This document shows, one piece after another, positions 1,357-15,978 of a stretch of DNA of 15,978 nt (its first letter is position 1; the number at the start of each line of letters is the position of its first letter). The DNA comes from a virus: the UHGV virus genome UHGV-0117658; one strand, given 5' to 3'. Both the position numbers and the translations under genes were made by a program. The notes beneath the pieces are model-generated. The model was not told the DNA's origin. It did no database searches and was given only the letters and a program-made list of their open reading frames with translations.

Positions 1357-1486
1357 TTTTCCGATGCTCCCCCTAAATTTTTGAAAAAATTAGAAGTGGT
1401 CAGAAATCACCCTGATTTGTTGGTGGTTTTGTATATATCTCTGTTAGTGATTTGAGCATTGGTGCAGTACGTTAATGTAGGTATGG

Positions 1487-2419
1487 CTACAGCGGCACCG
1501 CTGAGTAAACAGGCGTCTGATTGTCCGGGTTTCCGTCTGCGTCAAGCAGCTGAACGTCCACGGCATAACGTGGCCGGAATGGATCGGCAAAATTACCACT
1601 TTTCACGGGTTCAGTATGTGCCACCACTCTGGCCATCTTTGGCAGATGAAGCCCGGAAGCCAGTTCCGGATAATGGCTCTCAATCTGTCGTTGTGTCGGT
1701 GTTTTCTGAAGGGGGCTGCCTGTGACGCGGTTCCGGGGTGTCCAGGTGATAGTCATCGTGTCATTTGTAAGATGGACTTTGGTGACCCGTTCACCGTTAA
1801 GCTCAACGCCGGGTCGTATCGTCTGGATCACCGGTAACGTTATGGTATTCCCGCCAGCAGCCCCCTGGCTGAACTCTGCCGGCACTTCGACCGGACGACC
1901 GGTAAACAGTGACTTTTCAGCACCGCCGACGTAAAGCGAACCATCAGGCAACTGGTACCAGATGTAATCCTGGATACTGAATGCCCTGCCCAGGTTGTTC
2001 AGCAACTGATAGCCGGTACCGTTATGGGTGAAATGGGGGATCGGAGTATCGCTGTAAGACACATCGGGTACACTGACACCGATCCCGCTGTTTTCCGTCA
2101 GCCAGCCGGCTACATCCCTTAATGTCGGGTGCTGAAATGAACATGGCCACATCCTTTCAAAAACACCGGCCAGCTCACGAATGAACAGACGCTGATAACC
2201 GTTTTCAGCTGGTTGTGAACGTTCAACATAACCGGTAAACCAGCGCAAAAGCAGGTCGGTATATCCCACATCCAGCCGCACCAGTTTCCCGGTATAATCA
2301 GTGGTTGTCTCTGCGGTAATAAATCCCCGACCGCAACTGTTAAGCTCCAGTACCAGGCTGGCATCAGCCAGATGCACTTCATCCGTTGAAAGGTAAAGAC
2401 GTTTAACTGGTTTCATCAT
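1487..2419 (-). CDS. Hypothetical protein (310 aa), third gene of a coupled three-gene operon; no family recognised
   Basis: Long ORF; start ATGATG overlaps the stop of the upstream gene (TAATG coupling at 2417-2421); codon composition like neighbouring phage genes; no Walker or nuclease motif seen. Confidence 0.6.
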   Translation of the reverse strand: MMKPVKRLYLSTDEVHLADASLVLELNSCGRGFITAETTTDYTGKLVRLDVGYTDLLLRWFTGYVERSQPAENGYQRLFIRELAGVFERMWPCSFQHPTLRDVAGWLTENSGIGVSVPDVSYSDTPIPHFTHNGTGYQLLNNLGRAFSIQDYIWYQLPDGSLYVGGAEKSLFTGRPVEVPAEFSQGAAGGNTITLPVIQTIRPGVELNGERVTKVHLTNDTMTITWTPRNRVTGSPLQKTPTQRQIESHYPELASGLHLPKMARVVAHTEPVKSGNFADPFRPRYAVDVQLLDADGNPDNQTPVYSAVPL

Positions 2420-2964
2420 TAACCCAAAGCATCATTGACGGGCTTCAGCACCTTGCGTTCAAACCACGTCAGTTTTTCTTCATCTTCTCCGGCCGTCTGA
2501 CCACCGGATTGTTCCGCGCTGCCGGTTGTCTGTTTTTTCGCAGTGGTTTTGCCGGTTGATCTGGCTTCCCGCTTTTCCTGTACGCTAATATGTTCCGCCA
2601 GCGTGAAAGTCACCATCCAGGACATTTTCCCGTCCTGCTGTGGTGCATCCAGCATTCCGCTGAATGTGGCCTCACGAAAATTCACCGCTCTGGCAACCTC
2701 ATGCGCAACACGGTATGTCTGTCGTTTCCCGCTACTATCGGTAGCGCTGGCCAGTTCAAAGATACGCTTCAGAATCTCCGGATTTTTGAAAGGAATTTCG
2801 CCACTGATACGCAGCTCCTTTCCTTTTGCCCCCTGCTCAGATTTTGACGTTGCGCTGGTCTGCCCTGACTGGTCTTTATCCTGAAACTGCTGTGAGACTG
2901 TCACGCGCATATTCTTCAGCTGTATGGCCTCGCCGTTAAGCGCCAGTGTCGGGATCGAAGTCAT
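2419..2964 (-). CDS. Hypothetical protein (181 aa), middle gene of the three-gene operon; acidic, low-complexity C-terminal half
   Basis: ORF with ATG at 2964 preceded by aaagggaatgattc (SD-like); overlaps the upstream gene end by 29 nt and is stop/start coupled to the downstream gene. Confidence 0.55.
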   Translation of the reverse strand: MTSIPTLALNGEAIQLKNMRVTVSQQFQDKDQSGQTSATSKSEQGAKGKELRISGEIPFKNPEILKRIFELASATDSSGKRQTYRVAHEVARAVNFREATFSGMLDAPQQDGKMSWMVTFTLAEHISVQEKREARSTGKTTAKKQTTGSAEQSGGQTAGEDEEKLTWFERKVLKPVNDALG

Positions 2965-3661
2965 GAATCATTCCCTTTATTCCATCAAGATTATCGCCAA
3001 CCAGCATCATGGCAGCGGTGTAAACGGCAGACTGCTGCGGAATGTCCTTCACCAGTTCCAGTAACATGGTGTCGGTGTCTCCGCTGGCAGTAAAAACCCA
3101 CGCTCTGGCACTCTTCCCCTGTAAATCGTTCAGGCCGTTGGCCACATCACTGATAAGTTGGTCACGCAGCTGCGTGAACTCGCCCAGCTGTTTTTTCAGC
3201 CCTTCGATATCAAACCCGGCACCCGCCGCCTTTTGTGCCTGGCTGATTGCCGCAGCAGATAAAGCTGCCCTGCTGGTTGGTACAGACAGCGGAATGGACG
3301 CAGGTAACGCAGCGGCGGTTTTCGCAGGGATCTGCATCTTTTCAATAGCCAGCGCTGCGGCGGATTGCGCCAGCCGTTTGACCTGCGTGAATGCCGGGGC
3401 GGGGAAAATCCCGACCAGGTTATTCAGGCTGGCCATAAAGTTTTCCTGTGTCTGTCCGGTGACCATCATAATCACCACGTCCACATTCCCCCCTGTTCCG
3501 GCCAGGCGTTCAGCAAGATAGCGAACAGCATTAACCGGGCTGAGATATGCCCCGTTTGCTGTCTGCTGTCCCAGCCCATAAATCCACGGATGCGCAGGGA
3601 CGATCGAACAGTTCGACGCAGCAACAGAATCCGTGAAGGCCAGACGTGCTTCACGCCACAT
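2936..3661 (-). CDS. Hypothetical protein (241 aa from the internal ATG at 3661), first gene of the three-gene operon
   Basis: The ORF track gives 2936..3697, but the ATG at 3661 is preceded by GGAGGTG at proper spacing, whereas the 3697 start lies deep inside the Tfa-like reading frame. Ala-rich central region; no recognised domain. Confidence 0.55.
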   Translation of the reverse strand: MWREARLAFTDSVAASNCSIVPAHPWIYGLGQQTANGAYLSPVNAVRYLAERLAGTGGNVDVVIMMVTGQTQENFMASLNNLVGIFPAPAFTQVKRLAQSAAALAIEKMQIPAKTAAALPASIPLSVPTSRAALSAAAISQAQKAAGAGFDIEGLKKQLGEFTQLRDQLISDVANGLNDLQGKSARAWVFTASGDTDTMLLELVKDIPQQSAVYTAAMMLVGDNLDGIKGMIHDFDPDTGA

Positions 3662-4031
3662 TTCCAGGCACCTCCGGCCACACAATTTCCGGCGCATCTT
3701 CCGGTTGAATACGGTTCATTAAAACGCGGTATTTTTTCCATGCGGTAAGCAGCAGTGCTTCTTCTTCGGTCGCCATGTCTAAATCTACGGCATCCTGCAA
3801 TGTGGCAATGGCATCACTGGCCTGTTTAAGTAGTCTTTTCTTTTCTGCATCTGCCTCGCTGACTAATGCAGTTCGCATGGCCTCCGCATCATCCACCCAC
3901 GCCTTTCCATTCCATTTTTGCCAGGCATTAGCCGGGGCTGACGTGGTTGTCCCTTCCGGGTAAGCACCAGGCTCGGTGATTACCAGTTCATTACCGTTTG
4001 CGCGGTTGGCATCCAGCGCGGTAACAGCACA
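3651..4031 (-). pseudogene. Tail fibre assembly protein (Tfa/gpG family) C-terminal fragment with no upstream start; remnant of a tail-fibre module
   Basis: My own translation of this frame from 4031 downward gives ...ELVITEPGAYPEG...WQKWNGKAWV...[47 protein letters not shown], which closely parallels the lambda Tfa C-terminal half (QKWNGTAWV...[45 protein letters not shown], recalled from memory). The frame is closed by a stop just upstream of 4031 and lacks the Tfa N-terminal half. Confidence 0.6.
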
Positions 4032-4210
4032 TCACGCTTAAATTCCATTCGCTCAGCGCGGCTTTCAATCGCTGCAGCTGCGGCGACATCTTTCTCCAGC
4101 GCGACAATCTGAATATGCAGGCTGGTTTCCGTGTCCAGAGACTGCTGCTGTCGCAGTAACCGCTCCGCTTCAATTCGTGCGCTGTGGCGCTGTGCCGGTG
4201 ACAGTTGCAT
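3980..4210 (-). pseudogene. M: Terminase small (endonuclease) subunit gpM, N-terminal roughly 70 codons only, truncated by premature stop at the junction with the tfa fragment
   Basis: Sits immediately after the capsid gene N with a strong SD (agggggattta-ATG), as M does in P2. Begins MQLSPAQRH..., resembling the recalled P2 gpM N-terminus (MTSPAQRH...), but is 76 aa instead of about 247 aa; the downstream sequence switches frame into Tfa-like sequence. Confidence 0.5.
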
Positions 4211-4220
4211 TAAATCCCCC

Positions 4221-5249
4221 TTACTCGCCTGCCGGAGGCGCGACAGGTGCCCCGATAGCTACCGCACTTTCATCAAACGCGGCGTACAGTTCCGGATACT
4301 CAACCGCATAACCTTCGTTACGCAGGTATTTGTTTTCGTACTGTTTACGGTCTTCCACAAACTCCGCTTTACGCTGACGCGTGCCGCGCTGGGTGTAGAT
4401 GTGCAGGTTTGGCAGTGTCGTAACAATCATGCGTTTGCCTGGCATAAACGGCGGTACGTAAGCCGTGCGGCCGGCGATGCTGTCAGACAGCAGTTGCGCG
4501 GCGATCTTCTCCGTGGGTTTGTCTGCTTTCTGATACAGACGGAACGACTCCGCCGCGACCAGATCAGCGCCGACAAGAACCACCAGGCGTGGATCATTAC
4601 GGTACTGTGCCGGGATTTTGGCGTTGATAAGGTCGGAGGCCATTGCATCCAGCGACACGTAATCGCCTTTCCCGTCACCGTCAAGCACCACCGCATCAGT
4701 GATGATCTGCTGGCCGTCCTTCCACTCTTTGACGATCTGATGCCAGCCCTTGTTCACATCCTCGCCGTTCGGGTTGGTTTCCGCGTTCGTGGTCTCGGCC
4801 ACTTTGGTACCGTTAAAGCCGATACGCAGCATATCCAGCGCAAACGCCTGATTGGTGAACTCCTGAACACGCTGGAAAAACTCGTTTTCATCGCCGGCGT
4901 TCGCCCAGACAGAAAGCAACTGCCAGGTGAGTGCGGCGCATGAGTCGGTCTCGACCAGACTGTAATCATTACCACTCACGCCCACTTTCTTACGGAAGCG
5001 GCCATCCAGTACACGCCCGGTATACAGGCCAGAGCTGCCAACCGGAACCACCTGCCCCTGCAGCTGATCGACATCGGCAACGGTGATCAGATTCAGGAAA
5101 TCAGACTGCTCCATCAGCGCATTGCGCAGCTGGGTTTCTTTGGGGTCGGTGAGTGCAAACCAGCGTTCGCTGTCGGTCGCCCCGTAGGATTCACGCAGCC
5201 CGGTGTGATACTGAAGCAGAAACTCACGGGCTTTCGCATTTAATTGCAT
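4221..5249 (-). CDS. N: P2-family major capsid protein (gpN-like), 342 aa
   Basis: Size, position between the O-like and M-like genes, SD aaggaaaaagaat-ATG, and resemblance to P2 gpN as I recall it. Confidence 0.85.
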   Translation of the reverse strand: MQLNAKAREFLLQYHTGLRESYGATDSERWFALTDPKETQLRNALMEQSDFLNLITVADVDQLQGQVVPVGSSGLYTGRVLDGRFRKKVGVSGNDYSLVETDSCAALTWQLLSVWANAGDENEFFQRVQEFTNQAFALDMLRIGFNGTKVAETTNAETNPNGEDVNKGWHQIVKEWKDGQQIITDAVVLDGDGKGDYVSLDAMASDLINAKIPAQYRNDPRLVVLVGADLVAAESFRLYQKADKPTEKIAAQLLSDSIAGRTAYVPPFMPGKRMIVTTLPNLHIYTQRGTRQRKAEFVEDRKQYENKYLRNEGYAVEYPELYAAFDESAVAIGAPVAPPAGE

Positions 5250-5283
5250 ATTCTTTTTCCTTAAAGAAAAGTAGTGTTATCCC

Positions 5284-6123
5284 TTACAGGAAATTGAAGC
5301 CTTTTTTGCCCTTGCTGAATTTCTTGTCCGGCAGTTGAGTAACTTTGTTATTCAGCTTGCTGAAGTTTTTCACCAGCTCCGGCAGGTTCCCCACCAGACG
5401 CGCAAAATCTTCGGTGTCCACTACTTCCTTCACGGTGTCCACATCGTCCTGCACATCAGATACCGCTTCTTCCGCCTCACCCAGACGGGTTTCAATAGCA
5501 GATACGCGCTTATCAATGGCATCCAGCGCTTCAGCCAGCGCCTGTAAGGCATCAGACTGTGAAGGTTCCTGCTCCGGGGTCTGCTCCGGTTCTTCGATAC
5601 TGAAAAAATGGCGCCAGCCCTTTTTCGCTGTCTTTGACATTCCCTTTTCCTTTTTAAATTCCCTGACTTCATCAAACGCCAGCGGCTTGTATGGTCCGAT
5701 GCGTTTTCCCCTGGTGCGGCTGAAACGTAACCGTGTGGTGCTTACCCCGGCCGGACTGTCAGTAATGGCCAGTCCCTCAAGATAGGTTTTCCCGGTATTT
5801 CTGAAATTGCCGTCCGGTGTAAACTCCGGTGATAAAAATAAAAGCTGACCGTCTGCATTTGCCTGTAGCAATGAAATCGCCGGACAGAGGCGGGCATATA
5901 AACGAAGAATACCTTCATCATCCCGCTCGGCTTTTACTTCCAGCACCTCCCCCATATTCCCGAAATTACGGGAATGTTCCGGCCATAACAGCGCGGTATA
6001 CAAAGAGGGGTCATATAATTCAGCGGCATCAAGCAACCATTGTTCTTCAATAAATCGCTTATCAACCGTTTCACCCGCAGTGGCGATACAAATCCAGTTT
6101 GTTGCCAGTTGTGAACCTGACAT
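5284..6123 (-). CDS. O: P2-family capsid scaffolding protein (gpO-like), about 279 aa from the ATG at 6123
   Basis: The ORF track starts at 6183, but the in-frame ATG at 6123 has a perfect GGAGG SD and gives a length close to P2 gpO (284 aa). Acidic, coiled-coil-like C-terminal half typical of scaffolds; divergent from P as in P2. Confidence 0.8.
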   Translation of the reverse strand: MSGSQLATNWICIATAGETVDKRFIEEQWLLDAAELYDPSLYTALLWPEHSRNFGNMGEVLEVKAERDDEGILRLYARLCPAISLLQANADGQLLFLSPEFTPDGNFRNTGKTYLEGLAITDSPAGVSTTRLRFSRTRGKRIGPYKPLAFDEVREFKKEKGMSKTAKKGWRHFFSIEEPEQTPEQEPSQSDALQALAEALDAIDKRVSAIETRLGEAEEAVSDVQDDVDTVKEVVDTEDFARLVGNLPELVKNFSKLNNKVTQLPDKKFSKGKKGFNFL

Positions 6124-6266
6124 ATTGCCTCCGTTCATGCTGCGGTTTTCAGTATCGCCAATAAAATTAACCGCCGCATTCACTTCATTTCGGATATAGG
6201 CTATTAGCCGAACACATCAGAAATAAAGCGGGATTTAATATACAAACGCCCGTGCATAATGTGTGC
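6124..6266. promoter_or_regulatory. Divergent intergenic region between O and P; expected location of the divergent late promoters
   Basis: Positional inference from P2 gene organisation; no canonical TGT-N12-ACA dyad found here by eye. Confidence 0.4.
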
Positions 6267-8048
6267 ATGGCTAAATATTCAGAAGAATTAAAAGGCGTTG
6301 CGCGGGCGCTTTATTTAAAACGCTATACCCCGCAGGAAATTGCCAGCGAACTTAATCTGCCTAACAGACGCATTGTCTATTACTGGGCGGAGAAATATTG
6401 CTGGGCGGAATTACTCAGTCATGAATCCACCGAAGATGCATTAAACCGTCGCATTCAGTCACTGACATTACGTGAAGGGAAATCGGAGCTGGAGCTGCGG
6501 GAGCTGGACAGTCTCGTTTCTCACCTGGTGAAACTACGTGCACAGCACAATAAGCATCAGGAAAAGCTGGCAGAAATTAAACACAGTGAAAATGATGCGC
6601 CGGCGCGTCAGTCCGGTGGCGACGAAAAGCCCCGGAAACGTGGCAAGTACAAAAAGAACGACATCAGCGGACTGACACAGGAAGATTTTGACCGGTTCGC
6701 GCTGGAGCACCTTTTCGGTTACCAGAAACACCTTCGCGCTAATCTTCATCAGCAAATCAGGAACATCCTGAAAAGCCGCCAGATTGGTGCAACCTGGTAT
6801 TTCTCAATAGAAGCCTTTGAGAATGCGGTCATGACAGGCGATCCGCAAATCTTCCTGTCCGCATCAAAGGCTCAGGCGGAAGTATTCCGCAGCTATATCG
6901 TCAACATTGCGGAGCAGTATTTCGGCGTGGAGCTGACGGGAAACCCCATCCGCCTCTCCAACGGCGCGGAGATGCGATTCCTGTCCACCAACAAGAACAC
7001 CGCCCAGTCATACAGCGGCCATCTGTACTGCGATAAATATTTCTGGGTACCCAACTTTGCAAAATTAAACGAAGTGGCCAGCGCGATGGCCACACACGAC
7101 AAATGGCGAACCACCTACTTTTCCACCCCCAGCAGCAAAACGCACCAGGCGTACCCGTTCTGGACTGGTGAAGAATGGAAGCGCGGTGACAAAAAACGCG
7201 CGCGCGTACAATTTCCCACGGAGAAGGAGCTGCGCGACGGTGGACGGTTATGTCCTGATGGGCAGTGGCGCTACATCATCACAATGGAAGACGCGAGCGC
7301 AGGCGGGTTTAATCTCGCCAGCATCGGGAAGCTGCGCAACCGCTACAACCGCGACACTTTCAACATGCTGTATATGTGCGTGTTCGTGGACAGCAAGGAC
7401 AGCGTATTTTCGTTCTCTCACGTAGAACGCTGCTGTGTAGATCCGGATATCTGGGAGGATCATGACGAAAACCTGCCCCGGCCGTTCGGCAACCGTGAAG
7501 TGTGGGCGGGTTATGACCCGGCTCGCAGCGGAGACACCTCCACCTTCGTGATCATCGCGCCGCCGATAGTGGCCGGCGAAAAATTTCGGGTACTGCGTGT
7601 ATTCCACTGGCAGGGGATGAACTGGAAGTGGCAGGCGGCACAGATTAAGAAGCTGTTTGGCCAGTACAACATGACCTACATCGGCATTGATATCACTGGA
7701 CTGGGTAGCGGTGTCTTTGAAGACGTTCAGCACTTTGCCATGCGTCAGGCAGTGGCGATCCGCTACGGCGTCGAGACCAAAAATCGTCTGGTGATGAAGA
7801 TGATCGACGTTATCGAAGACGGCCGCGTGGAATGGGATAAGGAGAAGACCGAAATCGCCGCCAGCTTTATGACCATCCGCCGTACGTCCACGGCCAGCGG
7901 CAACGCAATGACTTTCGTCGCCGATCGCACAGCAGAAACAGGACACGCAGACAGTTTCTGGGCTATCGCCCATGCCATTGACAACGAGCCATTAAACTTT
8001 GAAAACCAGCGAAAATCACGCTGGGGTAACTTAGGGAAAGCAGCATGA
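6267..8048 (+). CDS. P: Terminase large (ATPase) subunit, gpP-like, about 593 aa
   Basis: Conserved blocks shared with P2 gpP as recalled (LYLKRYTPQEIA, NILKSRQIGATWYF, SASKAQA.VFRSYI, FLSTN.NTAQS, YFSTPS.KTHQAYPFWTG, GYDP.RSGD). Start taken at the ATG at 6267 rather than the track's GTG at 6252; stop overlaps the Q start (ATGA at 8045-8048). Confidence 0.85.
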   Translation: MAKYSEELKGVARALYLKRYTPQEIASELNLPNRRIVYYWAEKYCWAELLSHESTEDALNRRIQSLTLREGKSELELRELDSLVSHLVKLRAQHNKHQEKLAEIKHSENDAPARQSGGDEKPRKRGKYKKNDISGLTQEDFDRFALEHLFGYQKHLRANLHQQIRNILKSRQIGATWYFSIEAFENAVMTGDPQIFLSASKAQAEVFRSYIVNIAEQYFGVELTGNPIRLSNGAEMRFLSTNKNTAQSYSGHLYCDKYFWVPNFAKLNEVASAMATHDKWRTTYFSTPSSKTHQAYPFWTGEEWKRGDKKRARVQFPTEKELRDGGRLCPDGQWRYIITMEDASAGGFNLASIGKLRNRYNRDTFNMLYMCVFVDSKDSVFSFSHVERCCVDPDIWEDHDENLPRPFGNREVWAGYDPARSGDTSTFVIIAPPIVAGEKFRVLRVFHWQGMNWKWQAAQIKKLFGQYNMTYIGIDITGLGSGVFEDVQHFAMRQAVAIRYGVETKNRLVMKMIDVIEDGRVEWDKEKTEIAASFMTIRRTSTASGNAMTFVADRTAETGHADSFWAIAHAIDNEPLNFENQRKSRWGNLGKAA

Positions 8049-9064
8049 AAAAACGGAAATACAGGGAACGCCGCACCGCCAGCAAGCCGCGCCATATGAG
8101 CCTTATTACCCTGGGTAAACCGGAACCCATTCTGACGACCGGCACAAACTACACAGACGTCTGGTATGACAATGAAGCGGAACACTGGACGCTCCCGATT
8201 GACCGGCTGGCGCTGGCGCAACTGGTGAACCTGAACGCGCAGCACGGCGGTGTGCTGTATGCCCGTCGCAATATGGTGACGGCAAACTATAAAGACGGCG
8301 GACTGACGCATGAACAGCTTGGTGCAGCCGTGTTCGACTGGCTGACCTTCGGTGATGTGGCCATTCTGAAAGTGCGTAACGGCTGGGGGGATGTGGTGGC
8401 ACTGTACCCGCTGCCGGCACTCTATACCCGCCAGCGTAAGACCGGGGAGTTTGTGGTACTGCAGCAGGGTGAACCGATGATTTATCCGCCTGAAGATATT
8501 ATTTTTCTCAGGCAGTACGATCCGCAACAGGCGATTTATGGTCTGCCGGATTATATCAGCGGTATCCATTCTGCCCTGCTTAACGGTGAGGCAACAATTT
8601 TTCGTCGGCGTTACTACCATAACGGCGGACACACAGGTGGCATGATCTACTGTAACGACCCAAATATGACTGATGAAGTGGAAGAAGAAATTATTCAGAA
8701 GCTGGAGCAGTCAAAGGGGATCGGGAACTTCAGCACCATGTTTGTGAACATCCCCAAAGGCGATCCGGACGGCATCAAATTTATCCCGATTGGGGATATC
8801 AGCGCCAAAGATGAGTTTCAGAACATCAAGAGCATCAGCGCCCAGGACGTACTGACCGCGCATCGATTCCCGGCAGGACTGGCGGGGATTATCCCGACGA
8901 ACGGCGCAGTAATGGGAGATGTTGAGAAAGCGTCCAAAACCTACCGCAAAGCAGAAATTTTGCCCATTCAGCGCATGTTTACCGCCGCAGTGGAACAGGA
9001 AAGTGATGTACCGCCCCACCTGTACCTTAATTTCCTGAAAGACAGTGAGCTGGAAGGTGATTAA
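8045..9064 (+). CDS. Q: Portal protein, gpQ-like, 339 aa
   Basis: Translationally coupled to P; size and order (P then Q) match the P2 packaging module; internal motifs (LFRR.YY.NG.H.G, DGIK.IP) resemble P2 gpQ as recalled. Confidence 0.85.
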   Translation: MKKRKYRERRTASKPRHMSLITLGKPEPILTTGTNYTDVWYDNEAEHWTLPIDRLALAQLVNLNAQHGGVLYARRNMVTANYKDGGLTHEQLGAAVFDWLTFGDVAILKVRNGWGDVVALYPLPALYTRQRKTGEFVVLQQGEPMIYPPEDIIFLRQYDPQQAIYGLPDYISGIHSALLNGEATIFRRRYYHNGGHTGGMIYCNDPNMTDEVEEEIIQKLEQSKGIGNFSTMFVNIPKGDPDGIKFIPIGDISAKDEFQNIKSISAQDVLTAHRFPAGLAGIIPTNGAVMGDVEKASKTYRKAEILPIQRMFTAAVEQESDVPPHLYLNFLKDSELEGD

Positions 9065-9117
9065 TGTTCGCAAAAAGGCTAAAATATCATCGTTTTCCAA
9101 CTTCCGGAGCGATGGAT

Positions 9118-9393
9118 ATGCGGGTAATGAAGGTTTACTGTCCGGTATGTGAGGCAAGGGCTGTTATCAAAAAAACAGCCCGAAAACACAAGGAACTGTC
9201 GGATTTATATTGCGCGTGTACCGATGTTGAATGTGGTCACACTTTTGTGATGAATATGACATTCTCACATACCATCAGCCCCAGCGCCAAATCCAGCGAT
9301 GCGTTGATCGCCACTATCTGTAACAGCCTTGATATCCAGCAAAAGCAGCTGATGTTAAAGTTTCTGAGTCAGGACGGCACTGCTGCCGCATAG
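9118..9393 (+). CDS. ogr: Ogr/Delta-family zinc-finger late transcription activator, about 91 aa with a C-terminal extension
   Basis: CPVC-x19-YCACTDVECGHTFV matches the Ogr/Delta signature (C-x2-C ... C-x-C-x4-C-G-H-T-F). Start chosen at the ATG at 9118 with GGAG 9 nt upstream; the track ORF 9064..9393 is in the same frame. Confidence 0.7.
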   Translation: MRVMKVYCPVCEARAVIKKTARKHKELSDLYCACTDVECGHTFVMNMTFSHTISPSAKSSDALIATICNSLDIQQKQLMLKFLSQDGTAAA

Positions 9394-9398
9394 AAAAA

Positions 9399-9426
9399 AG
9401 CACCGCTACCGGTGCTTTTATTTTCT
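9399..9426 (+). terminator. Rho-independent terminator (stem agcaccg/cggtgct, loop ctac, then ttttatttt) immediately after the ogr-like gene; A-run upstream makes it potentially bidirectional
   Basis: Read directly from sequence. Confidence 0.6.
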
Positions 9427-9532
9427 GAGATGTAACAGATTCCCATCTATCAACGTCGATGAATGACCAAGTGATTAATAGTCCCCCCCTCCTAAACATG
9501 ATATTATCTTTCCAAATTTTGGGAGGCATCTT

Positions 9533-10252
9533 ATGTTAATAGTCTCAGTTCTTAAATGTAGTAAAGAGTTTACCCCTAAACACGCCCAATGGCTTCATCG
9601 TCAGTTCAAAGATATTCCATCTATATGTTTAACCGATGCAGATAATATTCCTGGAGTTAACACAACCCCTTTGCTTTATAACTGGCCGGGATGGTGGTCT
9701 AAAATTGAACTATTTAATCCTAATCACCCAGTCCTTGGAGACCAAGATTTACTCTATTTTGACGTAGATGTTGTGGTCACGGGAGATATTCATATTTTCG
9801 AAGGTGCGAAGAAATTTACAATGCTTCGGGAGTTTAACCATGCCTCAAGAGTAAACTCATCAATAATGATGATTCCGGCGTCGATTAAAAAGACGATTTG
9901 GGAACAATTCATTATTGATCCTGAGAAAATTATGCGCAATTGTCAGACTGAAGACAAATGGGGTGATCAGGGATTTCTCGGTAGCATCATAAAACCAGCC
10001 CTATGGCAGGATATCATTCCTGGCTCAATTGTTAGTTATAAATGTGACATCGCCACCCCCTCGATGATTGGCTTCAATGCAAATTTAGCCTCTGAGGCTG
10101 CGACAGGGAAAGTCCCTGATAATGTGGCGGTTGTTTGCTTTCATGGCAGTCCACGCCCCTGGCGTACTGGTTTTGATTGGGTTCCTTCGTTTTCCCTGCG
10201 GGATACTCTGTACGGTAAATTAAAGAACTTTAAAATAAGAATGAAGCAATAA
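9533..10252 (+). CDS. Glycosyltransferase family 8-like (LgtC/RfaJ-type) nucleotide-sugar transferase, 239 aa; AT-rich accessory gene
   Basis: DxD motif in LYFDVDVVV, WGDQGFL and CFHGSPRPW blocks parallel GT8 motifs (YLDIDVLV, QDQDILN, HYCGPAKPW in LgtC, recalled from memory). Strong SD gggagg 6 nt before the ATG. Clearly lower GC than the flanking phage genes. Confidence 0.6.
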   Translation: MLIVSVLKCSKEFTPKHAQWLHRQFKDIPSICLTDADNIPGVNTTPLLYNWPGWWSKIELFNPNHPVLGDQDLLYFDVDVVVTGDIHIFEGAKKFTMLREFNHASRVNSSIMMIPASIKKTIWEQFIIDPEKIMRNCQTEDKWGDQGFLGSIIKPALWQDIIPGSIVSYKCDIATPSMIGFNANLASEAATGKVPDNVAVVCFHGSPRPWRTGFDWVPSFSLRDTLYGKLKNFKIRMKQ

Positions 10253-10320
10253 AGATAACGCCCCTATTGCTTCAATGTTCGCTCCTTCCCCTAACAATAA
10301 AGTTAGGCACTAGTGAACCG

Positions 10321-12978
10321 TTACTTTTCCCGGCCAAATATCCAGCAGCGGAATGTTTCCGGCATCCGTTGCATATCCCCTTTACCACGATTATGGCGCT
10401 CACTTACCGCGCTGCGCGTGGTGCTTTGTCTGATAAACCGGCGCTCATTGCCGTTTTTAAGCAGCTTTTTAATTTCCGTTAACGTGAACGGAATACGCTG
10501 CCGGTGTGCTGCGGCGACCTCTTCCATGTGATTGAAATTAACCGCGATTTCATTTTCATCTGATGAATGATTGATGCCATAAGGTGCCAGTTCATCCAAG
10601 TAATCAAACAGCTCCCAGAACTCCTGCACCAGAGGATGATCCTTTTTAAGTGCCTGACAACGTTCAACGGCCAGCGCGGTGATGGCTTCACGCGTTTTTT
10701 CTATACGTTCAACCGGCACCGGTACAACAAGTGCAAGCGCCTCCAGCAAGCCCACAAGCTGCGCGTGATTCTTTGCAATACGGATATGGCGAATACTGCT
10801 ATTAGACTCCAGCTCATTCCTAGCTCGCTCGTACCCCCTGCCGAACGTCTGCATGATTTCTTTTTCGCGCATGGTGGCCAGTAATGTGAATCCGGATACC
10901 TGGCTAACGGGGAGTTGTTCAAGTCGTTCTGCAGCGTGGCGCGTCTGAATGGACTGGCCGCGCTTGTCGGTATAGATGTGGATGATACGCTCCAGAAACG
11001 CCTTGCTGCCGTCTGTGTCGGCATTTTGCGCTATCACAATACTTCCCCTGAACGGCGGCTCATACGTCTCGTTATTGTTCGATTTGATACCCACGGCGCG
11101 GGAGGCACGACCGTTATACAGTGATTTCAGCTCGTCCCAGTCAAAAGCGCGTTGCTTGGCGTTATCGGTAGTACGGTCGCCCTCAATCAGCACAACCGGC
11201 AGATTACCGACCTGGGCGAAGTTACGGCCACGCGCGGCGGCGGTAGATTTAGATGGGTCAAACCCTTCGTATTCCTCACGGCCGGCGAGCTTCCAGAGAA
11301 ATTCTATCAGCGTGGATTTACCTGTCCCCGGCTCGCCCACGATTTCCAGAAACGGAAATGACTTGTCACGCTCGCGGATTTGTTCGGCAAACAGCGACCC
11401 CAGCCAGAACGCCAGCGCCACATACCCTTTTTCACCAAATGCCGTCCAGATATCGTCTACCCAACCCGTAGTAAACTCGTTCAGCTTCGGATTCAGATCC
11501 AGCGCCGGCGTGAGGCTCAGGCTCTTAACGCTGGCACTGTTGATTTCGAAGTAATCCTCGTCGTTCATCTCATACAGCCGGCCATCGCAAACGGCCACGC
11601 GGTTAAACAACCAGGCGGCATAATCCTTGTTATAGCCGATGAAATTCTGCGTCTTTACCTCTTTGATTTCAGGGAGGCGCATCTGGATGAACTTATCCAG
11701 CTGTTTGGTGCTGCCTGTGTACACCGCCCCTTTGGCGATGTGCAGCAGACGCTTTTTGAACTCGGCGGAGCTGGTGAGCTGATTAGCCGTGAAAGTATCT
11801 TTCACGGCTGGCCGGTTAGGCATACTGACTTTCACGTAATACCAGGACTCGTCCGTAGGTTCAGACCGCTGAAAGTAAAGCGGCGTCAGCCAGCAGTTAG
11901 CTATTTCGGTCACGCCGCCTGACTCTTTAACCGCCCGTTCTTTGGCCTCCCACTCCATCACCACTTCGGTACCGGTATTGGTGATGCGCTCATAGGCTCG
12001 CATATACCTGTCCAGATCCAGCTCAAACCAGTACATGCGGGAGTTATGCTCAAAGTAGAACGAGTGCCACTCGTTATGCTGATGCATGAGCAGCGCTTTC
12101 TCAGTCGGGCTTTTTGCCAGAAGGAGATCGCCATAGTAGCGATAATTTTTAATGTCCGACTTACTGAACCGGTTACGTAACAACAGGTCATTCCAGTCCA
12201 GCGATGCCGATGATTTCACCGGCTGCGCGGCACGAGTTTTCCATCCTGCAGCATCACTACGGGCAGCGAACGCCAGTGTGTGCTTTGTGCCGGCTTTATC
12301 GCCGTCAAACGCCCATACAAGACGTGGACGTGGTTTTTCACCCAGTTCTTTGGCCAGCGTATCCAGTGCGGCCAGCGGATAGTTGTTACTGCTCAGTGTG
12401 GCAACTGCAGGTAACCCTGCCTGGCACAGACTCAGCGCGTTGAAGATTCCCTCAGTGATCCAGATTTCGTTCACTTCCTGCAGGTTGATAAAGGGAGGAA
12501 CCCACCAGTGACCGACATAGCTTCCCCTGATGTTGGCTTTCTGCTTACCGAAGCGCTGCGGCTGGTCAATGATGCGCTCCCATGTTGCACCGCATGACAG
12601 CGAAAATCTGACCGTTGCCGACCCCATGCCATCTTTCACGAATGCACCCTGGGTAAAACAGCCTTTTAATGGCTCAGTCTCCAGCCCTCTGGCCTCGCGC
12701 AGATACGCCTCAGCTACTGCATGGGGGTTATCTTCTGTGGTCTGGTAACGTTTTGACCAGTCTTCAAAGATATCCGGATACAGCTCTTTCACGACAATCT
12801 GATGTGCGCAGTTATTTTCACGGCCACATTTCAGAATCCAGGGCTTTTCTATGCTGGTAAATAATTCGCGCTTACGACAGGCAGGGCAAACGCCCTGCTG
12901 CAAATACTTATCCCGCTCTTTAAATTCAAAGTCCCGAACAAGACGGCGCACAACGTCCTGTTGTATCGTTTCGTTCAT
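10321..12978 (-). CDS. Replicative primase-helicase, P4-alpha-like architecture (N-terminal Cys4 zinc ribbon, TOPRIM primase domain, C-terminal P-loop NTPase), about 885 aa
   Basis: CPACRK...CGRENNCAH zinc ribbon; TOPRIM-like ITEGIFNALSL and FDGDKAG motifs; Walker A GEPGTGKST. The track ORF begins at a TTG (13014); the first ATG (MNETIQQ) at 12978 is used here. Confidence 0.8.
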   Translation of the reverse strand: MNETIQQDVVRRLVRDFEFKERDKYLQQGVCPACRKRELFTSIEKPWILKCGRENNCAHQIVVKELYPDIFEDWSKRYQTTEDNPHAVAEAYLREARGLETEPLKGCFTQGAFVKDGMGSATVRFSLSCGATWERIIDQPQRFGKQKANIRGSYVGHWWVPPFINLQEVNEIWITEGIFNALSLCQAGLPAVATLSSNNYPLAALDTLAKELGEKPRPRLVWAFDGDKAGTKHTLAFAARSDAAGWKTRAAQPVKSSASLDWNDLLLRNRFSKSDIKNYRYYGDLLLAKSPTEKALLMHQHNEWHSFYFEHNSRMYWFELDLDRYMRAYERITNTGTEVVMEWEAKERAVKESGGVTEIANCWLTPLYFQRSEPTDESWYYVKVSMPNRPAVKDTFTANQLTSSAEFKKRLLHIAKGAVYTGSTKQLDKFIQMRLPEIKEVKTQNFIGYNKDYAAWLFNRVAVCDGRLYEMNDEDYFEINSASVKSLSLTPALDLNPKLNEFTTGWVDDIWTAFGEKGYVALAFWLGSLFAEQIRERDKSFPFLEIVGEPGTGKSTLIEFLWKLAGREEYEGFDPSKSTAAARGRNFAQVGNLPVVLIEGDRTTDNAKQRAFDWDELKSLYNGRASRAVGIKSNNNETYEPPFRGSIVIAQNADTDGSKAFLERIIHIYTDKRGQSIQTRHAAERLEQLPVSQVSGFTLLATMREKEIMQTFGRGYERARNELESNSSIRHIRIAKNHAQLVGLLEALALVVPVPVERIEKTREAITALAVERCQALKKDHPLVQEFWELFDYLDELAPYGINHSSDENEIAVNFNHMEEVAAAHRQRIPFTLTEIKKLLKNGNERRFIRQSTTRSAVSERHNRGKGDMQRMPETFRCWIFGREK

Positions 12979-13017
12979 AAATAATCCAGATGTGAAATAA
13001 TGGGTAAAAGGCAAAAA

Positions 13018-13236
13018 CTATATTCTGTACTGCTTGTTATATCGCTCATGTGTCATTAGTTCCCAGCTTCTGCCCTTATCCTTACTCAGTAATCGCCAGC
13101 GATAAGAAACATGAACAGAGAAATAATGTTTTGGCTTAATAACCTGATATACCTTTTTGCCGTTGTAATATTCTGTCAGCACTGAAAATGCCTTGTGAAT
13201 GACACTTTCACTTGCATGAGAGGTCACTGTAAGCAT
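13018..13236 (-). CDS. Possible small basic protein (72 aa), start 2 nt after the exonuclease stop; uncertain
   Basis: ORF only; AT-rich; no SD recognised; occupies the otherwise 260-bp gap between the exonuclease and primase genes. Confidence 0.25.
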   Translation of the reverse strand: MLTVTSHASESVIHKAFSVLTEYYNGKKVYQVIKPKHYFSVHVSYRWRLLSKDKGRSWELMTHERYNKQYRI

Positions 13237-13238
13237 CG

Positions 13239-13808
13239 TTATTTCACACTGGCTATTTTTACAAGATACATCCAGACATAAGAAACAACTTTAGCCTGAT
13301 GAATGGCATCATATAAAGCGTGATGTTTAACACCATCAAACTTAATAATATTACGAACATTCAGCCCAAGTGTTTTTGACAGTTCAACAACCGTTCTTAC
13401 ATCACGGTCATTCCAGTAGTACCAAAGTGGATCGGCAAACCCGCATTTCTCTGATGCATTACGTAAAATAACATTGTCGAACGCTGCACTATTCCCCCAT
13501 ACCTGTACTTTAGATGGGTCAGAATGCTCAGTAATAAAAGCTTCCAGATTAGCTAACGTCAGAGGCAAGTCCAGACAATCGTCATTAAGCAGCTCGCTAC
13601 GCGCTTCGGCATCCTGACGCATCCACCATAATACGGTTTCTGACCCCATAGTGAGACCGTGGCCTACACAGCTGCCCAGGCTGACACGTTGATAAAACTG
13701 TTCACCCATTTCGCCAGTTTCAGGGTCAAAGAATACAGCACCGATAGAAGCAATCGCAGAAGTCGGTTTATTATCCATTGTTTCAAGGTCAATCATTAAA
13801 TGTTTCAT
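13239..13808 (-). CDS. DEDDh-type 3'-5' exonuclease (DnaQ-like fold), 189 aa
   Basis: N-terminal MIDLET motif (Exo I, D-x-E), a central ...FD... block and C-terminal H-x4-D (HHALYDA) are characteristic of the DnaQ/RNase T superfamily; SD aaggaaccgat-ATG. Confidence 0.75.
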   Translation of the reverse strand: MKHLMIDLETMDNKPTSAIASIGAVFFDPETGEMGEQFYQRVSLGSCVGHGLTMGSETVLWWMRQDAEARSELLNDDCLDLPLTLANLEAFITEHSDPSKVQVWGNSAAFDNVILRNASEKCGFADPLWYYWNDRDVRTVVELSKTLGLNVRNIIKFDGVKHHALYDAIHQAKVVSYVWMYLVKIASVK

Positions 13809-13817
13809 ATCGGTTCC

Positions 13818-14153
13818 TTAACGTTGGGAAGCTGCAACAGATTTAAGATGCGAGTTATTACTTTTTAACGCTGTGGTAGCCAGCGACATAAGACCGGAAA
13901 TGTTATTTTCAGTTGGTATATTTCCGCCAAATACCATAAGCGTGATTTTGTGCAGTTCTTCAAAATCATCACTATCATTATTAAAGCGAGCAGTGGAGGT
14001 TATACCCTCAAGGCATTTTGCAAGCTGAATGTTTAATTCCATTAACTGCAAGCCATCGCTATGTACAGAGAATGTTTCTTTATCAATAGTTTTTGCCTGA
14101 GCGTGATAGTTTTGCAACAGACTACGAATCAGCGTGGCATATTTAGTCTTCAT
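13818..14153 (-). CDS. Hypothetical protein (about 111 aa from the ATG at 14153), AT-rich early-region gene
   Basis: ORF with GGGGA SD before the ATG at 14153 (the track's 14165 start is a TTG); no recognised domain. Confidence 0.5.
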   Translation of the reverse strand: MKTKYATLIRSLLQNYHAQAKTIDKETFSVHSDGLQLMELNIQLAKCLEGITSTARFNNDSDDFEELHKITLMVFGGNIPTENNISGLMSLATTALKSNNSHLKSVAASQR

Positions 14154-14179
14154 GATAATCCCCAATAATATTTAGTTTA

Positions 14180-14461
14180 CTAACGAGCACTTTTATCTTT
14201 CGTGAATAAACGGTTCTTCCAGTCATGCCATTCAGGCGGGGCAATTTGAGCCAAATGAATGGCATAAGCATCCCATTCCCCCCGATGGATATAGATTTCC
14301 CCACCTTTTTTTGATGGATTTAGAGGGTCTTTCATGCGGATTACCGGCAGTTTTCCAGCCGTGGCCATTTTGCGAATTGCAGCAGGCGTTTTGCCTATAT
14401 ATTCGGCAAAAAGCTCAGGGGTCACCAACTCTGAAAGCGCCTTTTCTGCTGGTTCCTTCAT
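14180..14461 (-). CDS. cox: Cox-like/excisionase-family small DNA-binding protein (93 aa), divergent from the repressor
   Basis: Position and orientation identical to P2 cox relative to C and int; size 93 aa (P2 Cox 91 aa); ...GKLPVIRMKDP... resembles the Cox/Xis-type wing region as recalled. Confidence 0.65.
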   Translation of the reverse strand: MKEPAEKALSELVTPELFAEYIGKTPAAIRKMATAGKLPVIRMKDPLNPSKKGGEIYIHRGEWDAYAIHLAQIAPPEWHDWKNRLFTKDKSAR

Positions 14462-14569
14462 CTGTGGTATCCTTCGTTAGTTTGGGTTCCTAGGGCGCTT
14501 TAAGTCGTTCTAGGGTTCTTTTGTCAAGGTTCTTTTGTAAGAACCAATAATAGTTACGATACAAGAACC
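14462..14569. promoter_or_regulatory. Immunity switch region between cox and C: divergent promoters with multiple GGTTCT half-sites (direct and inverted) and two CTAGGG motifs
   Basis: Direct reading: gggttcc (14484), gttctaggg (14507), ggttcttttgt x2 (14514, 14529; 15-bp period), inverted aagaacc x2 (14539, 14563); ctaggg at 14490 and 14510. Confidence 0.55.
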
Positions 14570-14869
14570 ATGTCAAGAAATTATGCGGAGAAACTCCGGC
14601 AGATCCGGAAAGCTGAAGGGTTAACTCAAAAAGATTTTTCAGAGCTTACTGGGGTAGCTCTTGGAACAATAAAAAAGTACGAAACTGGCCATCAGCCAGC
14701 TCGTGCAGAAGTCTTAGAAAGTGTTATAGAGGTACATATGTTTGAAAAATATACACTCTGGTTAATGACAGATAAGACGGCACCAATTGCGGGGCAGGTG
14801 TCCCCGTCTCTCTCCCCTGATGGGCAAGACAACATAACATCATCCCGTTCCACCCGGAAAATTGGCTAA
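14570..14869 (+). CDS. C: P2 C-type immunity repressor (HTH), 99 aa
   Basis: Exactly 99 aa like P2 C; HTH LTQKDFSELTGVALGTIKKYETG; the FEKYTLWLMTDKTAPIAGQVSP block parallels P2 C (FTKYTLWFMTNQIAPESGQIAP, recalled from memory). Confidence 0.8.
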   Translation: MSRNYAEKLRQIRKAEGLTQKDFSELTGVALGTIKKYETGHQPARAEVLESVIEVHMFEKYTLWLMTDKTAPIAGQVSPSLSPDGQDNITSSRSTRKIG

Positions 14870-14935
14870 ACATCTGGTTTTTCTATGCGTTAGCGCAAAA
14901 TTTACATAATGATTCATACATCGGAGGGCTTCGCT

Positions 14936-15928
14936 ATGTCGATTAAGAAGCTTGATGATGGTCGTTTTGAAGTGGACGTTAGACCGCGCGGAACCTCAGG
15001 AAGAAGGATTCGACGCAAATTTGACAGAAAGGCGGAAGCACAGGCATACGAGCGGTATGTACTGACAAACTTTCACGATAAAGAATGGCAGGATAAACCC
15101 GCAGACAGGAGGCTTGTATCCGAGTTAATTTCTTTATGGTGGAGCTACCATGGAAAGAATCACAACTATGGTGACTCATATAAAAAGCGTTTGGAAAAAA
15201 TCAACCGAGAAATGGCGGAACCCAGAGTGTACGAGCTTACCCGCAACTTTCTGATGAAATATCGTGCAGAACGACTTCATAGTGGAGTATCTGCTGGCAC
15301 GGTAAACAGGGATTTCTGTTCCATGTCCAGCATGTTCAGTTTGCTGATAGATATGGAAGAATTTCATCACGAAAACCCGTTTCGCGCCGTGAAGAAGTTA
15401 CGTCTGGAAAACACAGAAATGTCATTTCTGTCCGAAGAAGAGATCCACCATTTGCTGAATGCCCTTACAGGGGATGATCGCAGAGTTGTCGTTCTTTGCC
15501 TGAATACAGGAGCACGATGGGGTGAAGCCAGTAATCTTAAAGCTGAAAACGTGATAAGTAACCGTGTGACCTTTGTTAAGACCAAAACCGGCCCAGCTCG
15601 TACTGTTCCGATATCGAAGGAAATCGCGGACTACATCCTTACACGCAAATCGGGGAAATTGTTCGATACCAACTATGAGCGAGTTCGCGATGTTCTTCGT
15701 AAGATTAAGCCAGACTTGCCGAAAGGTCAGGCACTGCATGTTTTACGCCATACCTTCGCAACACATTTCATGATCAACGGCGGGAATATCATCACGCTAC
15801 AGCGTATTTTGGGTCATACAACAATCGAGCAAACAATGACATATGCTCACTTCGCCCCAGATTATCTGACTGATGCCATACGATTTAACCCTATGCGTGG
15901 GAGTGTCCACATAATGTCCACCGACTAG
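14936..15928 (+). CDS. int: P2-family tyrosine integrase, about 330 aa
   Basis: Begins MSIKKLDDGRFEVDVRP after a GGAGG SD (the track ORF starts 9 codons upstream); catalytic-region blocks CLNTGARWGEA, NRVTFVKTKT, HVLRHTFATHFMINGG, ITLQRILGHT.IEQTM.YAHFAP match P2 Int as recalled. Confidence 0.9.
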   Translation: MSIKKLDDGRFEVDVRPRGTSGRRIRRKFDRKAEAQAYERYVLTNFHDKEWQDKPADRRLVSELISLWWSYHGKNHNYGDSYKKRLEKINREMAEPRVYELTRNFLMKYRAERLHSGVSAGTVNRDFCSMSSMFSLLIDMEEFHHENPFRAVKKLRLENTEMSFLSEEEIHHLLNALTGDDRRVVVLCLNTGARWGEASNLKAENVISNRVTFVKTKTGPARTVPISKEIADYILTRKSGKLFDTNYERVRDVLRKIKPDLPKGQALHVLRHTFATHFMINGGNIITLQRILGHTTIEQTMTYAHFAPDYLTDAIRFNPMRGSVHIMSTD

Positions 15929-15950
15929 GGCATTTTAGGGTGTATTAGGG
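15926..15950 (+). repeat. Three TAGGG direct repeats at a 10-bp period overlapping the int stop codon; candidate arm-type/Cox-type protein-binding sites of the attachment region
   Basis: Direct reading: cTAGGGcatttTAGGGtgtatTAGGGtta; the same pentamer occurs twice in the cox-C switch region. Confidence 0.45.
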
Positions 15951-15978
15951 TTAATAAGGCGCTCATAACATATTGATT

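Follow-up and report, generated by a model that had tools for sequence, protein, structure and literature searches.

A probable internal deletion scar joins gpM to tfa in a defective P2-like prophage of Escherichia coli

Gene content around the gpM/tfa junction

The stretch of DNA analysed here (the window; 15,978 nt, UHGV virus genome UHGV-0117658) carries on its minus strand, at 3980-4210, a chimeric ORF of 76 codons in which GpM residues 1-71 are followed by five out-of-frame tfa codons (TVMNW) and a TAA stop. The gpM fragment retained in it (4000-4210, minus strand) comprises the 5' 211 nt, about 30% of the 714-nt gene. Directly next to it, in a different frame, lies the 3' part of tfa (3651-3999, minus strand) with the last 115 of 195 codons and the stop; this remnant encodes Tfa residues 81-195 (3651-3998) and has no native start codon. 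An earlier sequence-only reading had proposed an M-like ORF ending after 76 codons, with the C-terminal part of a Tfa-like protein continuing in another frame, and both are indeed present. Residues 1-71 of the translated ORF are identical to the 237-aa GpM of an intact prophage in E. coli NT1F10, described below. The ORF matches positions 2-39 of the 130 in the Pfam profile Phage_term_smal (PF05944) with 24.9 bits, under the cut-off of 29.4, and positions 2-73 of 232 in PHROG 74 (small terminase); for intact GpM the PF05944 match spans positions 2-127 with 132.6 bits. The Tfa fragment matches Caudo_TAP (PF02413) with E=2e-32 and positions 92-204 of 239 in phrog_105. Full-length GpM having 237 aa, a small terminase of this family is not naturally about 76 aa long, and at this E value the Tfa similarity is anything but spurious. 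A sequence search of the PDB with GpM returned no relatives. The 76-codon ORF has neither the full Phage_term_smal domain nor the size of about 230-240 aa of a functional GpM, and the tfa remnant has neither its own start nor the N-terminal 80 residues of a functional Tfa; we infer that both remnants, M' and 'tfa, are non-functional by-products.

The gene content of the window was derived from six-frame ORFs together with Pfam and PHROG matches. To the left of the chimeric ORF, all on the minus strand, the Caudo_TAP fragment is followed by an intact 241-aa gene of unknown function downstream of tfa (2936-3661; phrog_1677), an intact HP1_ORF34-like baseplate-complex gene of 181 aa (2419-2964; Pfam match and translation), a 310-codon ORF, an iteron-rich intergenic region and an acyltransferase gene. 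To the right are the intact P2-family major capsid gene N (4221-5249, minus strand), whose protein is identical to that of the intact prophage, and the GPO capsid scaffold gene O (5284-6123, minus strand), intact by Pfam match and translation. These are followed on the plus strand by the large terminase gene P (6267-8048), with an open frame and the changes E257K (nt 7035) and I344S (nt 7297), the portal gene Q (8045-9064), intact by Pfam match and translation, and an intact ogr gene (9064-9393). Beyond ogr come a Toprim primase-helicase, a 3'-5' exonuclease, cox, an HTH repressor and a tyrosine integrase. None of the 13 genes on the right-hand side of the junction is interrupted by a stop or frameshift. 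The remainder of about 16 kb thus comprises int, the repressor, cox, replication genes, ogr, Q, P, O, N, three distal baseplate-region genes and an O-acetyltransferase gene.

Judged by this gene content and by its 99.9% identity to an intact member, the window represents an Evevirus-type (Peduoviridae, P2-like) prophage; its place in the E. coli chromosome is between raiA and pheL. The P2-family major capsid, GPO scaffold, portal and large terminase genes are all present, with the P2-like cluster profiles PF04860, PF03237/PF17289, PF05929 and PF05125 on the called genes and the divergent order Q-P / O-N-M, and the RefSeq annotation of a 99.9%-identical prophage agrees. The regulators are likewise those of the group, and all are intact: an Ogr/Delta zinc-finger late activator (PF04606), Cox (PF10743), a C-type repressor and a tyrosine integrase. 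The complete contractile tail, lysis genes and cos of a viable phage are missing. A literature search on Evevirus/ESSI2 yielded nothing specific.

Comparison with the intact prophage

When the whole window was compared by megablast with 5,426 complete RefSeq E. coli genomes, at least 12 genomes matched positions 3998-15978 at 99.9% in a single block, and in these same genomes the left part of the window matched elsewhere, separate from that block. As reference we took the prophage of E. coli NT1F10 (NZ_CP075462.1, 1181-1210 kb; locus L002, 29.1 kb), which sits at raiA-pheL, is bounded by the 16-nt direct repeat CCTTCGGGCGCGTTTT (the att core), has a cos site and encodes full-length gpM (237 aa), tfa (195 aa) and spike (567 aa) products. 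Intact copies are found in NT1F10 and about 12 isolates from pigs, cattle and food, mostly pigs. The segments retained in the window are collinear with this prophage and 99.9% identical to it throughout, with window 1490-3999 aligning to L002 5045-7554 and window 3998-15978 to L002 19001-30981. The 11,448 bp in between (L002 7555-19002) are missing at the junction, hereafter J2. Flanks of 2.5 kb and 12 kb that are 99.9% identical to one and the same reference amount to a collinearity far beyond chance.

The alignment also defines J2 to the nucleotide. The parental matches overlap by the two nucleotides TT at 3998-3999, with no inserted bases, which places the breakpoint between 3997/3998 and 3999/4000. 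The window reads ...ATTACCGTTT/GCGCGGTTGG... across the 3999/4000 boundary; in the intact prophage the tfa-side parent reads ...ATTACCGTTT/TCCGTG... and the gpM-side parent ...CCAGGATT/GCGCGG.... By calculation, a microhomology of at least 2 nt is expected in about 16% of random joins, so that the 2 nt at J2 are not significant. With both flanks collinear and a single clean breakpoint free of foreign DNA, J2 has the properties of an internal deletion derivative, and we consider it very probable (at about 0.93) that J2 is the scar of an internal deletion joining the 5' part of gpM to the 3' part of tfa. The central claim of the earlier reading, a deletion junction between the 5' end of gene M and the 3' part of a tfa gene, is therefore borne out by the alignment to an intact P2-like genome that it had called for. 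Mapping of the breakpoints showed the M and Tfa homologies to meet exactly at 3999/4000 with their 2-nt overlap, more tightly than the 25 nt or so it had given, and the microhomology it had suggested looking for is the TT, within chance expectation. For annotation, the deletion explains why a 76-codon 'terminase small subunit' lies next to an 81- to 115-codon 'Tfa', both of which should be flagged as pseudogene fragments.

According to the NT1F10 annotation and the product names of phage ev239, J2 removed 17 whole genes and parts of two more. Besides the C-terminal 166 codons of gpM and a 63-aa gene, the head completion (adaptor), tail terminator and neck protein genes are gone, as are those for the sheath (DUF2586) and tube, the holin, the M15 endolysin and two spanin-like genes, the tail chaperone, a DUF6890 gene and the tape measure, DUF2590, baseplate J and gpI-like tail protein genes (baseplate W/J/I-like genes), the tail fibre gene and the first 80 codons of tfa. 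Because of these losses the element cannot lyse the cell, build a tail or package DNA, and with them a 16-kb element incapable of phage production is left. The loss of head completion and lysis genes had been predicted correctly. For the tail the prediction was too sweeping: sheath and tube have disappeared, but not every baseplate gene, since the HP1_ORF34-like gene and a truncated spike gene stay. Similarly, the capsid and packaging genes had been described as intact, which holds for Q, P, O and N but not for M, which is destroyed, or for cos, which is gone.

The window differs from the NT1F10 prophage by eight substitutions. When these are polarised against other alleles, three of the eight are confined to contigs with the deletion allele, namely those at 7297 (TerL I344S), at 14088 (synonymous) and, in some of the contigs only, at 7035 (TerL E257K). 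With so few substitutions (two or three) in its lineage, the deletion is recent. The junction itself does not date the event, as had been suggested; only the near-absence of divergence points to a recent origin.

A second deletion and the cos site

The window has a further junction, J1, at 1489-1490. The 1,301 bp lost there correspond to L002 3744-5044 in the intact prophage and contain cos together with the 3' 774 nt of the spike gene. There is no microhomology at J1 (0 nt). The baseplate/spike gene (1487-2419, minus strand; phrog_2258) is left with the first 310 of its 567 codons and a stop created at the junction; it has weak gp5/V-like hits, and its C-terminal 257 aa are lost. The proposal that one deletion explains the defectiveness of the element was therefore right about a real deletion but overstated, since this second one took cos. 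The candidate cos in the intact prophage has a G-rich core of 18 nt (L002 4074-4091) with an 11-nt inverted repeat around it, and the linear records of Cronobacter phage ESSI-2 and of ESSI2_ev239 terminate exactly at this site, so the site lost at J1 is probably cos. In the window the core is absent even with three mismatches allowed. J1 was not found in the 5,426 complete E. coli genomes. All public contigs that span both sites carry J1 and J2 together, and a search of contigs encoding the 76-aa or the truncated 310-aa protein for an allele with a single deletion found none.

As a side observation, the RefSeq record of ESSI2_ev239 (NC_049392.1) ends in Illumina/Nextera adapter sequence and poly-A (29127-29203), and its first ~116 nt have no match to the homologous prophage. 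Both end stretches are likely to be assembly junk at the physical (cos) ends.

Occurrence of the junction in public assemblies

Does the junction exist in nature, or was it made by an assembler that mis-joined gpM to tfa in a genome carrying an intact prophage? In favour of such an error, J2 is absent from the 5,426 complete genomes, in which each half matches separately. The exact 30-nt junction has no matches in GTDB representative genomes or JGI metagenome contigs either, which is uninformative given that the allele is present in ENA and Logan data. There, 14 contigs encode exactly this chimeric 76-aa protein; their ENA and Logan assemblies stem from independent runs and different studies, including a human gut metagenome. 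The contigs come from different assemblers (Logan, ENA MEGAHIT, scaffolds), and all nine that were retrieved contain the exact 61-nt junction. Over as much as 14.2 kb, each of the nine has at most one substitution relative to the window, and one of them also has an 11-nt indel. A mis-join is hard to reconcile with an identical 61-nt junction and 76-aa ORF in at least nine independent runs with different pipelines, and in further runs too; moreover, with just 2 nt in common at the breakpoint, the parents offer no repeat that could cause it. The junction is thus neither unique to one assembly nor located at a repeat, and the probability of an artefact is negligible. J2 is a real allele, carried by an E. 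coli lineage in circulation, its support consisting of short-read and metagenome contigs, probably of one clonal lineage, rather than a finished genome.

Mechanism of the deletion

J2 is an illegitimate (non-homologous) deletion, and neither of its breakpoints shows an IS, an att-like sequence or an extended repeat. A DNA break or a replication template switch would have joined gpM codon 71 to a point in tfa 11,448 bp off, using at most the 2 nt (TT) of homology, and the separate 1.3-kb deletion in the same allele would have taken out cos, leaving a defective prophage of about 16 kb that is recent and stably inherited. The molecular route would be either end joining or slippage; J2's own 2-nt microhomology is uninformative on the repair pathway. 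Taken together, nine IS-free junctions of this prophage have 0, 2, 7, 4, 6, 3, 2, 2 and 2 nt of microhomology, a total of 28 nt that was reached in none of 200,000 simulations. Because this aggregate is far above chance, microhomology-assisted end joining or template switching appears to be the general route by which the raiA-pheL prophage decays.

Two other histories were considered. J2 might have arisen in steps, through two or more overlapping deletions, which would suit a prophage prone to repeated loss (four deletions in PSJ-12, two in YPE10 and two in the window allele). However, we know of no intermediate allele, all spanning contigs share one junction and a single event is more parsimonious, which makes a composite origin unlikely. 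Even less probable is removal of the segment by a mobile element or a site-specific recombinase, either as an IS-mediated adjacent deletion or through Int acting at secondary att sites. Other alleles do have deletions beside ISKpn26 (HZ13) or IS1 (BY63/68), and a deletion hot spot at another position in the element is suggestive of site-specific breakage. At J2, however, there is neither an IS nor an IS end, the att core CCTTCGGGCGCGTTTT is unlike either breakpoint, and neither endpoint matches an endpoint in any other allele. A single internal deletion hence accounts best for J2.

Relation to known elements and possible residual function

The closest relative is the NT1F10-type intact prophage, with which the window shares the insertion site, the att core and the order int-C-cox-...-toprim-ogr-Q-P / O-N-M, and from which it differs in that the intact form is 29.1 kb long and still has the 11,448 bp and the 1,301 bp. 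The phages ESSI2_ev239 (Evevirus ev239) and Cronobacter phage ESSI-2 have the same genome architecture and about 90-93% DNA identity over tfa and the three distal genes, but are complete phage genomes of about 29 kb whose record ends are the cos region. In megablast searches against phage genomes, similarity to ESSI2_ev (Evevirus, Peduoviridae) begins sharply at window position 3999 and extends leftwards. In the capsid module the DNA similarity is no more than distant: ESSI2_ev239 has no megablast match to the window there, and the related Yersinia phage vB_YenM_324 reaches only 72.7% identity.

The P2-related prophage of E. coli B is one of the classical defective prophages. Defective or cryptic prophages produced by internal deletion have also been described elsewhere (PMC6379469), including the defective prophage pool of E. 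coli O157 (PMC2669165). The window resembles such elements in having deleted lysis and morphogenesis genes while keeping the integrase/immunity end and a lysogenic-conversion gene, and differs from them in being very young, with its other genes undamaged and an intact parent known to the base pair. R-type tailocins, which are P2-like tail modules without heads, are similarly reduced sets with one morphogenetic module; however, it is the head that they have lost, with tail and lysis genes kept, which is the reverse of the situation in the window. Capsid-forming PICIs are also reduced, phage-derived sets with a single morphogenetic module, but they keep a working small terminase and a packaging site, both of which the window has lost: its TerS is truncated and the cos core is absent, so it does not qualify as a cf-PICI-like satellite. 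The window allele represents ordinary prophage decay and is a textbook internal-deletion defective prophage; it is a new, previously uncharacterised allele, and J2 alone is conceptually nothing new.

Could the reduced element nevertheless do something? A scan for sigma-70 promoters and terminators predicted no minus-strand terminator between O and the truncated spike gene, and since none is predicted downstream of O, the M' stub and the distal genes would probably be on the same transcript as O and N, provided that the late promoter is active. The P2-type late-promoter motif TGT-N12-ACA is not enriched and is absent from the O/P intergenic region. One could imagine a capsid-only satellite or a domesticated module, in which the TerS stub together with Q, P, O and N interferes with superinfecting phages. 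Such a function would fit the undamaged state of Q, P, O, N, ogr, int, cox and the replication genes, the possibility that the stub shares a transcript with O and N, and the persistence of the allele in many samples. Against it, self-packaging is impossible with cos deleted and a TerS under a third of its length, and divergence is too low for intactness to indicate selection. The late-gene changes confined to deletion contigs are both nonsynonymous and in TerL, which suggests relaxed rather than purifying selection, at n=2. We regard a functional reduced element as very improbable. The same very low likelihood attaches to the more specific proposal that the allele is a retained, mildly domesticated element rather than neutral debris, with the M' stub and capsid proteins interfering with the packaging of superinfecting phages. 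If it were true, an Ogr-controlled O-N-M' transcript would yield a 71-residue TerS stub alongside capsid, scaffold, portal and large terminase, and Evevirus/P2-like DNA packaging could be disturbed by dominant-negative or decoy action in an element purged of lysis genes and cos.

Other decayed alleles at raiA-pheL

At least five more independently decayed alleles of the 99.9%-identical prophage are present at raiA-pheL, among them those of PK5 (L003), HZ13 (L004), PSJ-12 (L014), BY63 (L015) and YPE10 (L016). With the parent known to the base pair and several independently decayed alleles at one locus, this prophage offers a convenient natural series for studying the speed and junction types of P2-like inactivation. 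In PK5/CUPF12, a deletion with a 7-nt microhomology (CGGTATA) joins capsid gene N to the spike gene (PK5, L003 3516-5288); the product is an in-frame 590-aa fusion that RefSeq labels 'P2 family phage major capsid protein'. PSJ-12/23CRST024 has four deletions and YPE10 two, those of HZ13 (ISKpn26) and BY63/68 (IS1) are IS-associated, and some decayed alleles have integrase or toprim pseudogenes.

Three independent deletions have their left end inside one 11-bp interval (window 1479-1489, corresponding to L002 3733-3743), at L002 3743 for J1 of the window and at 3737 for both PSJ-12/23CRST024 and YPE10. From there the deletions reach rightwards across cos over 1.3 kb (window), 7.0 kb (PSJ-12/23CRST024) and 13.9 kb (YPE10). 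This clustering of endpoints is non-random. An iteron/AT-rich array is about 120 bp away from the hot spot and cos about 335 bp, and no hairpin, IS, att core or Rfam element was found that would explain the clustering: DNA folding of the region gave no hairpin (z=+1.6), Rfam had no match in the window or in the cos/hot-spot region of the intact prophage, and the att core has no similarity to any of the breakpoints. A scan with the left flank of the hot spot retrieved one metagenome contig, which is intact at this point. The iteron array itself, retained in the window at 1090-1355 between the acyltransferase gene and the hot spot, consists of 11 copies of TGTGA(T/C)G in both orientations flanking an AT-rich stretch, with only three other copies in the remaining 15.7 kb; NT1F10 has one 11-bp tandem unit more in this region. 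The array may serve the Toprim primase-helicase as a replication origin, or it may consist of sites bound by terminase.

Finally, two accessory genes are kept by every decayed allele that retains their region: a 239-aa gene between ogr and Toprim (9533-10252, plus strand) that matches phrog_1962, annotated as a glycosyltransferase moron, and a 72-aa gene (13018-13236, minus strand) that RefSeq annotates as a ParE-family toxin-like protein.
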